This document shows positions 2,813 through 30,525 of a DNA stretch of 64,000 nucleotides, one piece after another. How positions within the stretch are numbered: position 1 is the first letter of the stretch; every line of letters begins with the position of its first letter. The translations under genes were made by a program, and so were the position numbers. The DNA lies in contig JBAZWF010000001.1 in assembly GCA_041660485.1 (NCBI GenBank), positions 410,224 to 474,223 on the forward strand, in the 5' to 3' direction. Under the pieces are notes generated by a model. It ran no database searches, was not told the origin of the DNA, and saw nothing but the letters and a program-made list of their open reading frames with translations. The stretch is from Candidatus Pacearchaeota archaeon. GTDB taxonomy: Archaea > Nanobdellota > Nanobdellia > Pacearchaeales > GW2011-AR1.

Positions 2813-2868
2813 AAAAACTCAAATATTATTAAAAATATTATTCTAAAAAAGTTTATAAGAGTAGATAC

Positions 2869-2877
2869 TTTTATAAA
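2869..2877 (+). promoter_or_regulatory. TATA-like box upstream of tRNA-Arg
   Basis: TTTTATAAA centred about 29 nt upstream of tRNA position 1. The same spacing is seen for other tRNAs and leaderless genes in the window. Confidence 0.4.
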
Positions 2878-2901
2878 CAAAACAGTTGAAGTTTAAACTA
2901 T

Positions 2902-3041
2902 GCTCCCGTAGCTCAGCCTGGATAGAGCGCTGGCCTTCTAAGTAAAAAGAACCGAGGGTTCTTCTTACGACATCTCCTTTTTGGAGAGGGCGAAGAAAAG
3001 AAGACAGTCAGAGGTCGCAGGTTCGAATCCTGTCGGGAGCA
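2902..3041 (+). tRNA. tRNA-Arg (anticodon UCU) with a 65-nt intron at 37/38
   Basis: Manual fold: acceptor GCTCCCG/CGGGAGC, D arm GCTC..GAGC, anticodon stem CTGGC/GTCAG, loop CT-TCT-AA, T arm GCAGG-TTCGAAT-CCTGT, discriminator A. Intron is 2941-3005. Confidence 0.85.
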
Positions 3042-3095
3042 TTTATGTTATTATGCTATTGAATGAAATGAAATAGTATAAAATATTCTGATTGA
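3029..3095 (+). repeat. Direct repeat copy 1 (67 nt): last 13 nt of tRNA-Arg plus 54 nt of trailer
   Basis: cctgtcgggagcatttatgttattatgctattgaatgaaatgaaatagtataaaatattctgattga is identical to 3222-3288. Confidence 0.9.
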
Positions 3096-3109
3096 TTCAA
3101 ACTAGAGTT

Positions 3110-3234
3110 CAGGTTCGAATAGTTGGTTTCCAGAGAAAACAACTTGCCAAAATTCTATTAAGAATTTTAAGCACCTTAAATTCTCTAGAATTTAATGGGA
3201 TAGAGAATAAAATTCTCTAGACCTGTCGGGAGCA
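3110..3234 (+). other. Interrupted pseudo-3' segment of tRNA-Arg
   Basis: caggttcgaat (3110-3120, same as the tRNA T-arm 5' half and loop) + 101-nt insert (3121-3221, includes hairpin TTAAATTC-tcta-GAATTTAA at 3176-3195) + cctgtcgggagca (3222-3234). Removing the insert recreates the last 24 nt of the tRNA exactly. Confidence 0.7.
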
Positions 3235-3288
3235 TTTATGTTATTATGCTATTGAATGAAATGAAATAGTATAAAATATTCTGATTGA
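3222..3288 (+). repeat. Direct repeat copy 2 (67 nt) of the tRNA-Arg 3' end plus trailer
   Basis: Perfect match to 3029-3095, offset 193 nt. Confidence 0.9.
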
Positions 3289-3363
3289 ATTCGAACTCAA
3301 GAGCATTTTACTTTAATAATATTTAAAAAATCAATATTCTTTGTTATTTCTTATATTATTAAA

Positions 3364-3627
3364 ATGAAACCTTCAAATAGGATTGAGGCAAGAACAAAAG
3401 TCATGGAAATGGGATTAAGAGAAGATTATATTGCAGGGATTGAAAGAAATATTCGTTCTGCAAATAAAACAATAGAATCAATTACTAAAACTGAAACTTA
3501 TAATGTTATAACTGCTGCAATCCGATACTATTCTTATATATATAACGGCCAATCAGATAATAAGCTATTAATGAGAGCAGCTGACAAAGCTTTAGATATT
3601 TATAGTAGAAAACGCAAAAGAAACTAA
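3364..3627 (+). CDS. Hypothetical protein (87 aa)
   Basis: ORF with plausible composition and no recognisable motif. Lies between the tRNA-Arg repeats and the LAGLIDADG ORF. Confidence 0.35.
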   Translation: MKPSNRIEARTKVMEMGLREDYIAGIERNIRSANKTIESITKTETYNVITAAIRYYSYIYNGQSDNKLLMRAADKALDIYSRKRKRN

Positions 3628-3696
3628 TTAATTATTTATTATATTAAATTAAGGGAATATTTAAATATCAAAAACTAAATGTTTTTATGATTAATT

Positions 3697-4398
3697 ATGG
3701 ACTTATATGAATTAATGGGGTTTATAATTGGCGACGGTAATATTTATTATAGCAATAAATTTCAAGTCTATAGACTAGAATTATGTGGTAATTCTAAAGA
3801 AGATTATGATTATTTTCAAAAAATTTGTACATTTCTTGAAAAAGAAACTAGTAAGAAACCAATAATGTTTATAAGAAAAGAAAAAAAAGGAGAGAGTTTA
3901 AGAATCCAGTTTAATAACAAAAATTTTGTAGATAAATTAATAAATCTTGGATTACCTAAAGGTAAAAAGACTTTTAGCATAAAAATACCCGATAATTTAC
4001 TAAAAGAAGAAATTATGTTTTCTATATTAAAGGGACTATTTGAAGCCGATGGATGCTTATATTTTTCTAAATCAAAGAAATTAGAATATCCCTCTTATCC
4101 AAGAATTGAAATAAAAACTTCTAGTTCTGAATTAGTTCAACAAATTAATAATTTTTTAAATTCTCAAGGTTTTATAACATATATAAAAAATCCGTCTAGT
4201 GATAGAACATTTTCATTAGTATTAAGTGGAGAAAATATGCTTAAAAAATGGATTAATAAAATTGGTTTTGCAGGTCAAAAAAATCTAACTAAATATGAAA
4301 TATGGAAATCGAAAGGGTTTTATATACCTAATACTCCACTAAAAGATAGGTTAAACATGTGCGGGGATGGCACAGCGGCTACTGCGGTCGATTTTTAG
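3697..4398 (+). CDS. Double-motif LAGLIDADG homing endonuclease (free-standing)
   Basis: Two LAGLIDADG motifs: LMGFIIGDGNIY and ILKGLFEADGCLY, about 100 aa apart. The last 38 nt, including the stop, overlap the 5' exon of tRNA-Lys. Confidence 0.85.
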   Translation: MDLYELMGFIIGDGNIYYSNKFQVYRLELCGNSKEDYDYFQKICTFLEKETSKKPIMFIRKEKKGESLRIQFNNKNFVDKLINLGLPKGKKTFSIKIPDNLLKEEIMFSILKGLFEADGCLYFSKSKKLEYPSYPRIEIKTSSSELVQQINNFLNSQGFITYIKNPSSDRTFSLVLSGENMLKKWINKIGFAGQKNLTKYEIWKSKGFYIPNTPLKDRLNMCGDGTAATAVDF

Positions 4399-4491
4399 TA
4401 ACTTATGTTCATAAAGAGCCGAACCTGCAGCTGATGTGTAAGGTGTAAAGTAGTAAGCGACTTTTCCCGGGTTCGAGTCCCGGTCCCCGCT
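4361..4491 (+). tRNA. tRNA-Lys (anticodon UUU) with a 58-nt intron at 37/38
   Basis: 5' exon is exactly 37 nt (GCGGGGA TG GCAC..CTGC G GTCGA TT-TTT-A). 3' exon: A GCGAC TTTTC CCGGG-TTCGAGT-CCCGG TCCCCGC T. Intron is 4398-4455. One A-G mismatch closes the anticodon stem. Confidence 0.8.
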
Positions 4492-4524: not shown

Positions 4525-5418
4525 TTAAACATTAATTTTCATCATATCTTCTGCAATAACTGTTTCTTTAAAATATTTTTTTGCAAAAGTTAAAAGCTCT
4601 TTTACATTATTTTCATGTTTCTGGCTAAAATGAGTTAAAACTAATTTTTTAGTTCCAACTCTTTTCGCAATCTGTGCAGCTTGAGTAGCAGTCATATGTT
4701 TATACTCTTTAGCTAAATCCTCTTCATCTAAATAAGTAGATTCACAAATTAACAAATTTGAATCTTTAGCAATTCTATCGATATCAAGATTAGTTTTTGT
4801 ATCGGTAACAATAACTATTTTCTTTCCTTCTTGTTTAAATATTAAATCTTTAGCTTTTATTTTTTTGCCATTTATAGTTATATCTTTTCCTTGTTTCAAA
4901 TTTCCAATAATCGGCCCATTTGGAATTTTAAGTTTCTCTAATTTCTTTTTGTCAATTTTAATTTTATCTTTTTCAATAAATGCATAAGCTAAACATGGAG
5001 CATCATGAATCATTTCTTGAGCAGTAATTTGAAAATCTTCAGTATCTAAAACAATTCCAGAAGAAATTTCTTTTACTTTAATTTTTATTTTTCCAATATG
5101 AACAAAAATTGAAAGTATTTTTTCCATATAATCTCTAGTTCCTTTTGGCCCGTAAATTTCAAGTTCCCTAGGATAATCATTTAATGCAAGAGTTTGTAAT
5201 AATCCAGGAATACCCAAAATATGATCTCCATGCCAATGGCTAATAAAAAGTCTTGTTAATTTGCACGGATTAAGTCCTGCCTTCCTAAACTGCTTCTGTG
5301 TGCCTTCACCACAATCAAAAAGAATATTTTCAGTTTTATATCGTAAAAAAACTGATGGATGATTTCTTCTTACTGTTGGCACAGCACTTCCTGTACCTAA
5401 AAAAACTATTTCTATCAT
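4525..5418 (-). CDS. rnz: Ribonuclease Z (tRNA 3' endonuclease, metallo-beta-lactamase fold)
   Basis: 297 aa, HxHxDH motif ISHWHGDHILG, typical RNase Z length and N-terminus MIEIVFLGTGSAVP. Confidence 0.9.
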   Translation of the reverse strand: MIEIVFLGTGSAVPTVRRNHPSVFLRYKTENILFDCGEGTQKQFRKAGLNPCKLTRLFISHWHGDHILGIPGLLQTLALNDYPRELEIYGPKGTRDYMEKILSIFVHIGKIKIKVKEISSGIVLDTEDFQITAQEMIHDAPCLAYAFIEKDKIKIDKKKLEKLKIPNGPIIGNLKQGKDITINGKKIKAKDLIFKQEGKKIVIVTDTKTNLDIDRIAKDSNLLICESTYLDEEDLAKEYKHMTATQAAQIAKRVGTKKLVLTHFSQKHENNVKELLTFAKKYFKETVIAEDMMKINV

Positions 5419-8898: not shown

Positions 8899-8921
8899 TG
8901 TGACAATTTTATTTCTTTTAT

Positions 8922-9005
8922 GTGGGTGTGCCGGAGTGGTCAAACGGGACAGACTCAAAATCTGTTAGCTTAGTGCTTTCCTAGGTTCGAATCCTAGCAC
9001 CCACA
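8922..9005 (+). tRNA. tRNA-Leu (anticodon CAA), no intron
   Basis: Acceptor GTGGGTG/CACCCAC, anticodon arm ACAGA-CT-CAA-AA-TCTGT, long variable arm, T arm CTAGG-TTCGAAT-CCTAG, discriminator A. Confidence 0.85.
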
Positions 9006-9213
9006 TTTTATAAATATGCTATGAGATTCGAACCGTAGGTTCGAACTCAGTTAAATTCACAGAATTTAACTTACCAGAAATCTTTGATTTATGAGTACTA
9101 GCACCCACATTTTATAAATATGCTATGAGATTCGAACCGTAGGTTTGAACTCAGTTAAATTCACAGAATTTAACTTACCAAAAATAGAATATTTTTGAGT
9201 ACTAGCACCCACA
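9006..9213 (+). repeat. Two tandem 104-nt units, each ending in a copy of the last 12 nt of tRNA-Leu
   Basis: Units are 9006-9109 and 9110-9213. Each starts ttttataaatatgctatgagattcgaacc and ends gagtactagcacccaca. Unit 1 has hairpins ttcgaacc-gta-ggttcgaa (9027-9045) and agttaaattc-aca-gaatttaact (9049-9071). ctagcacccaca occurs at 8994-9005, 9098-9109 and 9202-9213. Confidence 0.9.
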
Positions 9214-20102: not shown

Positions 20103-20123
20103 TGGCCCTGCCAAGAATCTAAC
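20103..20123 (-). repeat. Pseudo-copy of the tRNA-Val 3' end
   Basis: tggccctgccaagaatctaac matches 20250-20270 (tggccctgccaagaatcgaac) at 20 of 21 positions. It lies 127-147 nt downstream of the tRNA on the tRNA strand. Confidence 0.8.
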
Positions 20124-20175
20124 ACCTGCAGTTCGCAGAACAAGGGTTGCCAAAAATTTATAAAATTTTTTAGCA

Positions 20176-20207
20176 CTTACAAAACTTTGAGATTTTGGTT
20201 TTGTAAG
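20176..20207. repeat. Hairpin within the tRNA-Val downstream element
   Basis: cttacaaaac-N12-gttttgtaag (10-bp stem). Related to the hairpin at 30343-30378. Confidence 0.6.
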
Positions 20208-20249
20208 GATGATTCTTCAGGTTATATATTATTTAGAAGAAATAATTTA

Positions 20250-20321
20250 TGGCCCTGCCAAGAATCGAACTTGAATCTCATCCACGTCAAGGATGCATCT
20301 TAGCCATTGGACTACAAGGCC
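20250..20321 (-). tRNA. tRNA-Val (anticodon GAC)
   Basis: Reverse complement: GGCCTTG TA GTCC..; anticodon arm CATCC-TT-GAC-GT-GGATG; T arm TCAAG-TTCGATT-CTTGG; acceptor 3' strand CAGGGCC; discriminator A. Confidence 0.85.
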
Positions 20322-20343
20322 ATATATCTAATATCTTTCCCCA

Positions 20344-30289: not shown

Positions 30290-30303
30290 ATAGCCCCGCC
30301 AGG
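30290..30303 (-). repeat. Pseudo-copy of the tRNA-Gln 3' end
   Basis: atagccccgccagg versus atagccctgccagg at 30401-30414 (13 of 14), 111 nt downstream on the tRNA strand. Confidence 0.65.
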
Positions 30304-30342
30304 CACTTAAAATTTATTCTAAATTTTGGTGACTATGATTTT

Positions 30343-30378
30343 TTACAAAATCAAGTATTCGAACACTTGAGTTTGTAA
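30343..30378. repeat. Long hairpin capped by a T-loop-like sequence in the tRNA-Gln downstream element
   Basis: tRNA-strand reading: TTACAAACTCAAGT-GTTCGAAT-ACTTGATTTTGTAA. The stem sequence is related to the Val element hairpin. Confidence 0.6.
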
Positions 30379-30401: not shown

Positions 30402-30525
30402 TAGCCCTGCCAGGATTCGAACCTGGGTCACAAGCTTTCTCCGATGTTCGCTCGCGATAATATTAATGGGTCTCGCAAACAACCTCGCCAAAGGCTCGTA
30501 GATTTGACCGCTGTCCTACAGGGCT
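30402..30525 (-). tRNA. tRNA-Gln (anticodon UUG) with a 51-nt intron at 37/38
   Basis: Reverse complement: acceptor AGCCCTG/CAGGGCT, anticodon stem CGAGC/GCTTG, loop CT-TTG-G[intron]A, T arm CCAGG-TTCGAAT-CCTGG, discriminator A. The D stem is only 3 bp. Confidence 0.75.

Follow-up and report, generated by a model that had tools for sequence, protein, structure and literature searches.

A two-hairpin module that splits a spare tRNA-Arg tail at its T-loop in a Pacearchaeota archaeon and recurs behind other tRNA genes

Repeats linked to tRNA genes are known from Escherichia coli, in the form of the tyrT/rtT units and of the repeats behind tRNA genes of rrn operons, which are transcribed together with the tRNA. 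The locus compared with them here lies in a 64,000-nucleotide (nt) stretch of a Candidatus Pacearchaeota genome (NCBI GenBank assembly GCA_041660485.1, contig JBAZWF010000001.1, positions 410,224 to 474,223 of the forward strand). This stretch is called the window, and coordinates refer to it unless a contig or locus is named. Behind its tRNA-Arg(UCU) gene, a second copy of the tRNA tail is split between tRNA nt 60 and 61 by a small two-hairpin module. The module belongs to a family, R1, found behind about half of the tRNA genes of this ~0.9-Mb genome of a groundwater DPANN archaeon. Its units resemble the E. coli "tRNA-linked repeats", a term used in PMC8144298, in being non-coding, in standing behind a tRNA gene, in each ending with the 3' end of that gene and in being sometimes arranged in tandem. 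They are unlike them in their archaeal host and in showing no sequence or Rfam relation to them: a search of Rfam 15 with positions 2850-3400 returns only tRNA at the gathering threshold or at E up to 10, and rtT (RF00391) has no match at either setting. The T-arm, moreover, is part of the tRNA piece, which a conserved and covarying module splits at nt 60/61, and the layout extends to about half of all tRNA genes and to other genera.

A further comparison is with the partial tRNA duplications that integrative elements generate as attL and attR, described for SSV-type and other tyrosine integrases (PMC9897764) and for tycheposons (bioRxiv 10.1101/2020.12.28.424599). As in these, the direct repeat at tRNA-Arg starts in the T-arm (at nt 50 when the module is left out), reaches or passes the gene end, and has the intact gene on one side and a partial copy on the other. 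It departs from them in that no element or integrase lies between the repeats, which are 126 nt apart here and 42 nt apart in the congener G012. The partial copy is also interrupted inside the T-loop, and units form tandem arrays. Miniature hairpin repeats mobilised in trans include the REP/REPIN sequences with their RAYT Y1 transposases, the IS200/IS605-derived PATEs and the Rickettsia palindromic elements. Like R1, they are gene-less, hairpin-forming, multi-copy and patchy in copy number between close relatives; they insert next to a short specific target on either strand, as R1 may also do. Unlike them, R1 has as its apparent target the T-loop of spare tRNA-tail copies, is found in a genome where no Y1 transposase or TnpB was detected, and shows strand-specific G-U pairs and GNRA loops that point to selection at the RNA level. 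It also differs from a DDE-type miniature inverted-repeat transposable element, having no terminal inverted repeats and being accompanied by repeats of 13-67 nt with no fixed length.

In Thermoproteales, transposed bulge-helix-bulge introns of tRNA genes were reportedly described by Fujishima and colleagues in 2010. The likeness lies in related small structured inserts at different tRNA positions and genes, the T-loop included, and one R1 copy is itself inside an intron. Unlike these introns, R1 has no bulge-helix-bulge at its junctions, its host copy is not a complete gene, and reverse orientations also occur. Methanopyrus kandleri carries a palindromic motif ~10 bp downstream of half its tRNA genes, which was proposed as a 3'-end maturation signal (PMC5217627). 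This motif shares with R1 a conserved hairpin-type sequence behind many tRNA genes of an archaeon, but it is a simple 18-nt palindrome without a tRNA-tail copy and is known from one species (PMC5217627). No description of modules such as R1 was found in literature searches or in Rfam 15.

The tRNA-Arg(UCU) locus

The tRNA-Arg(UCU) gene is complete and occupies 2902-3041 on the forward strand, like every feature of this locus described below (Rfam RF00005, 53.7 bits). Its exons, 2902-2940 and 3006-3041, flank a canonical 65-nt intron (2941-3005), and ARAGORN detects the gene only when introns are allowed. In the bulge-helix-bulge test, where it served as positive control, this intron has four of four central pairs and a 5-bp outer helix. 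A Logan contig from an intronless relative omits exactly these 65 nt.

The last 13 nt of the tRNA (nt 61-73) and 54 nt of trailer, at 3029-3095, are repeated without a difference at 3222-3288. Shuffled sequences give an expectation of zero for such a match. This 67-nt sequence has just two copies in the whole 922-kb genome, and an imperfect extension of the second runs to about 3303. Between the two copies lie 126 non-coding nt. They include, at 3110-3120, a sequence identical to 3018-3028, that is, to tRNA nt 50-60 (the 5' strand of the T-stem and the T-loop), whose first nucleotide stands beyond a 68-nt interval from the end of the complete gene. Joined to 3222-3234, it gives the last 24 nt of tRNA-Arg (nt 50-73) exactly. 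An earlier sequence-only reading had reported the repeat, the T-arm piece and the restoration of the tRNA 3' end on removal of 3121-3221, and all three were confirmed by recomputation. Without this block the two copies share 78 identical nt followed by ~15 nt of imperfect similarity. The repeat is therefore best read as a head-to-tail duplication of ~92 nt that starts at tRNA nt 50 and comprises nt 50-73 and ~68 nt of trailer. The same reading had taken the second copy for a tRNA 3' segment with an insertion inside the T-loop. This is borne out by G012, which has an uninterrupted, exact copy of the same nt 50-73, 42 nt behind its own tRNA-Arg(UCU); the interruption in the window falls exactly between nt 60 and 61.

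The interrupting block is not the single 101-nt insert that had been assumed. Its first part is a full module (3121-3173), and the remainder (3174-3221) is a partial one. The full module is formed by hairpin 1 (3121-3144) and hairpin 2 (3145-3173), the latter with conserved UGCCAAAAUU...AAUUUUAAGCA arms. It matches the R1 covariance model with 75.4 bits (E 1e-13), a score to be read with the window copy being one of the seven seed sequences of the model. The features that define R1 are found together at 3105-3175: a variable and covarying hairpin 1, a hairpin 2 with conserved arms and a 1x2 internal loop, and a T-loop-like heptamer in front. In the partial module, folding gives a hairpin-1-like stem-loop (3174-3198) followed by a different hairpin (3200-3219). 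The stem-loop is homologous to hairpin 1 of a full module in G020. The partial module as a whole has no other copy in its own genome, and the genus holds a homologue of its first hairpin only, with no full one. Upstream of the full module, an inverted T-loop-like octamer (3095-3102) can pair with the direct T-arm piece at 3113-3120 in a small hairpin (3095-3120) that was read from the sequence. Such an inverted T-loop copy usually precedes the direct one at other loci too and can pair with it.

Several sequences of this locus recur elsewhere. The core of the tRNA-Arg intron (2941-2981) holds a dispersed 39-nt hairpin repeat. The tRNA-Asp intron begins with the same motif (95% identity), two further copies in the genome lie outside tRNA genes (C1:119020 and C1:833925), and congeners have many, G001 giving at least 17 matches. 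The spare tRNA-Arg tail of G012 is directly followed by one. The trailer at 3048-3075 has a 28-nt word in common with the tRNA-Asp trailer (93% identity), and a 17-nt word is also present in the tRNA-Gly(GCC) and tRNA-Ala(TGC) trailers. From intron through trailer, tRNA-Arg and tRNA-Asp are 74% alike. These likenesses suggest that sequence may have been exchanged between the loci. At tRNA-Asp (G000:C1:254391-256570; L082 892-3069), nt 62-73 and 51 nt of trailer (63 nt, 98% identity) recur 2115 nt further downstream. A module comes after each copy, and the two repeats enclose a gene for a 434-residue metallophosphoesterase, so that this locus is a gene-bearing version of the tRNA-Arg repeat layout.

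The R1 family: distribution, position and fold

The family first became visible through a match in the congener G010, where a tRNA-Pro gene is followed by 21 nt, a T-loop, a stretch 83% identical to the window module and the tRNA-Pro 3' end. A covariance model, R1, was then built from seven copies; its consensus is two adjacent hairpins of ~53 nt. The search of the genome for the insert that the sequence-only reading had proposed gave two answers: BLAST with the 126-nt interior returned only itself, and the covariance model found 22 copies in the same genome. The suggestion that the insert is a mobile or repeated sequence was right in so far as its core is this family. Among 151 genomes, one sampled per genus across the family, 33 have R1 matches, and in the 21 genomes of the genus the number of copies ranges from 0 to 22, with none in 11 of the 20 congeners. 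One of the early copies came from G004, which, like G006 and G010, is rich in modules.

Three other tRNA genes of the window have R1 copies behind them. The copy at 30302-30368 on the reverse strand (68.5 bits) lies 33 nt downstream of an intron-containing tRNA gene, 30402-30525 on the same strand, and is followed by a copy of the 3' end of that tRNA (12 of 13 nt). This tRNA gene scores 44.8 bits with Rfam and is labelled "Stop(tta)" by ARAGORN. Its 3' end is nearly that of tRNA-Gln, and the gene is probably for a Gln isoacceptor whose intron was called in the wrong place. Behind tRNA-Leu(CAA) (8921-9006), a forward-strand module at 9141-9203 (36.5 bits) is followed by the 3' end of the same tRNA, and a weaker second match (26.5 bits) is present at 9035-9099. 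The third copy, at 20112-20177 on the forward strand (41.3 bits), is downstream of tRNA-Val(GAC), 20249-20322 on the reverse strand, and therefore in the opposite orientation. It abuts the reverse complement of a T-loop, beside a sense copy of tRNA nt 53-73.

The position of the modules follows a rule. With a tRNA gene called by ARAGORN within 300 nt, 42 of 49 copies (86%) lie downstream of the tRNA on the same strand. A perfect T-loop-like heptamer directly precedes 28 of the 41 distinct copies, compared with 0.6% of background 12-mers, a comparison that is partly circular in that the first positions of R1 include the motif. This is the observation that bears on an insertion of IS200/IS605 or REP type 3' of a short target; it stands with the motif inside the model and with no filled/empty pair. 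In reverse-oriented copies the reverse complement of the T-loop precedes the module and the sense copy of nt 53-73 is found just 3' of it. Seen from the module, the word in front of hairpin 1 is always of TTCRAAY type. The flanks on both sides copy the cognate tRNA: the one ahead of the module reproduces even unusual T-loops (UCCAAAU for Lys, UUCGACU for His), and the one after it nt 61-73. At least one downstream copy of the 3' end is present at 22 of the 35 tRNA genes of the genome and absent from 13. The repeat mostly comprises nt 61-73 and 0-4 further nt, and extends to 27 nt at the initiator tRNA-Met and 67 nt at tRNA-Arg. The same layout, with units of 90-200 nt, is found at about 20 tRNA genes. 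Tandem arrays are also present: three units of 95 nt behind tRNA-Gln of the same genome, two units behind the initiator tRNA-Met of G010, two behind a tRNA-His, and three each in G070 and G017.

The congener G009, which has no R1 copy, carries a different module family of ~42 nt behind tRNA-Lys, tRNA-Arg(CCT), tRNA-Leu(TAG) and tRNA-Ala(TGC) (loci L061, L064, L071 and L073). An inverted T-loop/T-stem word opens this module, and its other end is at a direct copy of the tRNA from the T-loop to nt 73. Its occurrence at the same place implies that several unrelated modules use the same niche.

Covariation across 48 copies, 41 of them distinct, supports the R1 fold. Standard pairs fill 96.6% of the cells, each of the 20 base pairs varies on both sides, the observed values were not attained in any of 500 shuffles and slid partners reach at most 54%; the alignment had been fitted to the model, a bias towards the structure, yet the margin is wide. 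There are 27 G-U pairs to 5 A-C mismatches, and GNRA tetraloops close 19 of 41 first hairpins, compared with ~2% expected from composition. The G-U excess and the GNRA loops are both typical of RNA read in the direction of the tRNA and indicate that the fold is selected on the tRNA-sense strand. Most likely, to judge from these sequence features, the module is copied into RNA as part of the tRNA 3' trailer. Transcription termination in archaea occurs at oligo-T, and only TTT is found directly 3' of the tRNA-Arg gene, which makes read-through plausible. Readings of the module as a hammerhead, K-turn, C/D or H/ACA RNA were dropped, their conserved boxes being missing as judged by eye.

Proposed origin and spread of the modules

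Near-identical modules stand at unrelated tRNA genes. Those behind tRNA-Pro and the initiator tRNA-Met of G010 are 88% identical, each with flanks that match its own tRNA, and modules of different genera at different tRNAs reach 80% identity. Within the window genome, the module pairs listed, none of which involves the window copy, are at most 69% identical, compared with 83% between the window copy and that of G010. One copy is found, reversed, inside the hairpin of a tRNA-Ser intron.

These observations are best accounted for by a non-autonomous, T-loop-seeking structured element that hit the duplicate of a tRNA tail, an explanation given about an even chance of being correct. According to it, a working tRNA-Arg(UCU) gene would be followed by a dead head-to-tail duplicate of its tail, ~92 nt long, whose T-loop would have been struck exactly between nt 60 and 61 by a small, gene-less element that is now present as one full and one partial copy. 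Members of the family would lodge beside the T-loop heptamers of spare tRNA-tail copies in either orientation, would be transcribed with the trailer and would move as DNA between different tRNA loci. They would be multiplied locally by unequal crossing-over between the repeated tRNA ends, which would thereby be kept identical. Such crossing-over can explain both the perfect identity over 67 nt and the tandem arrays. The uninterrupted state in G012 argues for two steps. The sequence-only reading had offered a recombination junction as one account of the block; this is partly right, the repeat itself being best read as a duplication.

A number of results weigh against this explanation. Searches of the 87%-complete genome for a Y1 transposase (PF01797), a TnpB zinc ribbon (PF07282) and a reverse transcriptase (RVT_1) gave no match. 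The genome has two integrase-like genes, both away from the tRNA-Arg repeats, coding for a protein of 401 residues on C1 and for a Phage_integrase protein of 292 residues, over the cut-off, on C2. The C1 gene, the only one of the two compared across the genus, does not track the module: among the 20 congeners it is found in G015 and weakly in G004, and is absent from the module-rich G010 and G006. No filled/empty pair with alignable flanks was found. In G004 and G009, tRNA-Arg(UCU) stands next to tRNA-Cys(GCA) without a unit, with spacers unrelated in sequence, and the tRNA-Pro loci of G000 and G010 are not syntenic. No one-step insertion model that could be devised explains how both flanks copy the target tRNA while an intact gene stands upstream. 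Old copies keep nt 61-73 perfect next to a diverged trailer, which fits selection for function as well as homogenisation. Neither genome nor tRNA type groups the modules clearly, the mean identities being 0.57 and 0.56, versus 0.54 for unrelated pairs.

The modules may instead be a functional RNA cassette of the host, a part of the pre-tRNA 3' trailer that is not selfish but passed on together with its tRNA gene, selection or gene conversion keeping the two matched. It could be, for example, a processing or termination cassette, or a mimic of the T-arm and acceptor strand that titrates a tRNA-end enzyme. The strong strand-specific covariation with its GNRA loops, the co-orientation of 86% of copies downstream of tRNAs, the perfect nt 61-73 beside diverged trailers and the downstream 3'-end copies at about 22 of 35 tRNA genes all speak for such a cassette. 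So do the tRNA-Ser(GCU) modules of two genera, which are equidistant from the gene, differ by compensatory changes and have 3' copies that track the tRNA of their own species. Its patchiness speaks against it, with 11 of 20 congeners lacking R1, 13 tRNA genes of the genome lacking a downstream copy, and tRNA-Arg(UCU) of G004, G009 and other congeners lacking any unit. Other points against it are that several unrelated families of modules occupy the same position, that some copies are reversed and one lies within an intron, that copy number varies in tandem arrays, and that the T-stem 5' copy decays. This origin is regarded as unlikely, though with a substantial minority chance. A further reading, considered improbable, is a tRNA-specific family of RNAs in which a transcribed two-hairpin scaffold would carry the last 13 nt of the neighbouring tRNA as a 3' tail, or address. 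Such RNAs could serve as tRNA-end mimics for a T-arm or 3'-end enzyme, or as the RNA part of an undescribed RNA-directed movement of DNA into T-loops in tiny DPANN genomes.

Other explanations concern the tRNA-Arg locus itself. An element with a tyrosine integrase may have entered at the T-loop of tRNA-Arg, restored the gene with its own nt 50-73 block and later been deleted almost wholly, the module being a leftover end. With the module left out, the first position of the repeat is nt 50, where integrase identity blocks usually begin, and its far end lies beyond the gene. G012 has this nt 50-73 block too, the 63-nt repeat of tRNA-Asp is of the same kind, 2.1 kb apart and around a gene, and the genome has its two integrase-like genes; in archaea, integration is well known to leave partial tRNA copies (PMC9897764). 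Against this, only 126 non-coding nt lie between the repeats, and about 20 tRNA genes show the same layout, in units of 90-200 nt and with tandem arrays. A crossover in the T-loop leaves no foreign DNA between nt 60 and 61 in either attL or attR, and this is where the module stands; the C1 integrase-like gene is missing from the module-rich congeners G010 and G006. An integration scar is accordingly a doubtful origin, with a small chance of being the right one.

Far less probable is that 3110-3234 is a tRNA 3' piece with a non-canonical T-loop intron, as the sequence-only reading had considered, or the 3' half of a trans-spliced split tRNA. T-loop introns exist in Thermoproteales, the position 60/61 is exact, and the genome is rich in tRNA introns, two of them in the neighbouring tRNA-Cys. 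The junctions 3120/3121 and 3221/3222, however, give three of four central pairs and no outer helix (two of four for the module alone), compared with the perfect bulge-helix-bulge of the real intron in the same gene. Nor is the flanking sequence a complete tRNA: the piece begins only at nt 50, with nt 50-60 on one side and nt 61-73 on the other. A whole tRNA-Arg(UCU) gene stands 68 nt upstream, the Arg genes with anticodons GCG, TCG and CCT are also whole, and modules occur in reverse orientation. An artefact in which assembly stitched two strain variants in series can practically be dismissed. It was suggested by the metagenomic origin of the genome, by a 67-nt repeat longer than common k-mer sizes and by an interior depth slightly below that of the flanks. 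The stretch is found, as Logan contigs, in a single public run, DNA of a groundwater metagenome, and a 223-nt contig is identical to the window throughout 3066-3288, linking copy 1 with copy 2 across the interior. Its depth of 16.4 is close to the 19.7 and 19.2 of the flanking contigs. This is a second assembly of what is probably the same sample, not an independent sample, and its 31-mer contigs, shorter than the repeat, allow no read-pair test and cannot show a minority of cells without the unit. A stitching error of the original assembler is nevertheless ruled out by a contig that spans both copies, and the sequence-only reading's concern that the real genome might hold a single repeat copy falls with it. 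The same architecture is, in addition, present at about 20 loci of the genome and in many other genomes.

Neighbouring genes and significance

Downstream of the repeat, the spacer between tRNA-Arg and tRNA-Cys (3364-4398, forward strand) holds an open reading frame (ORF) of 87 codons without a Pfam match and a 233-codon ORF for a LAGLIDADG endonuclease (3697-4398), the end of which overlaps the 5' exon of tRNA-Cys. The same spacer is ~85 nt long in G004, where the tRNA-Cys orthologue is intronless and lies 85 nt behind tRNA-Arg. In the window, tRNA-Cys(GCA) (4361-4491, forward strand) has two introns, of 33 nt (4391-4423, position 30/31) and 25 nt (4431-4455, position 37/38). Its joined exons are called tRNA-Cys(gca) by ARAGORN, the gene scores 36.9 bits with Rfam, and the raw DNA is labelled "Stop(tta)" by ARAGORN. 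It is followed on the reverse strand by a gene for a tRNase Z-like metallo-beta-lactamase (4525-5418).

Genes for tRNAs are classic landing sites of mobile DNA, and what is known there are large integrase-borne elements and their scars. The occupant described here is different: a gene-less element of ~53 nt, with RNA-type covariation, in the T-loop of spare tRNA tails across many Pacearchaeota-type genera. For genome annotation, the split copies of tRNA tails are easily miscalled as pseudo-tRNAs, introns or att sites. If the element is mobile, it may be moved by a novel mechanism, or else by some T-arm-recognising enzyme of the host. Should it be functional instead, it would add to pre-tRNA biology a layer not described before, in organisms whose genomes are minimal.

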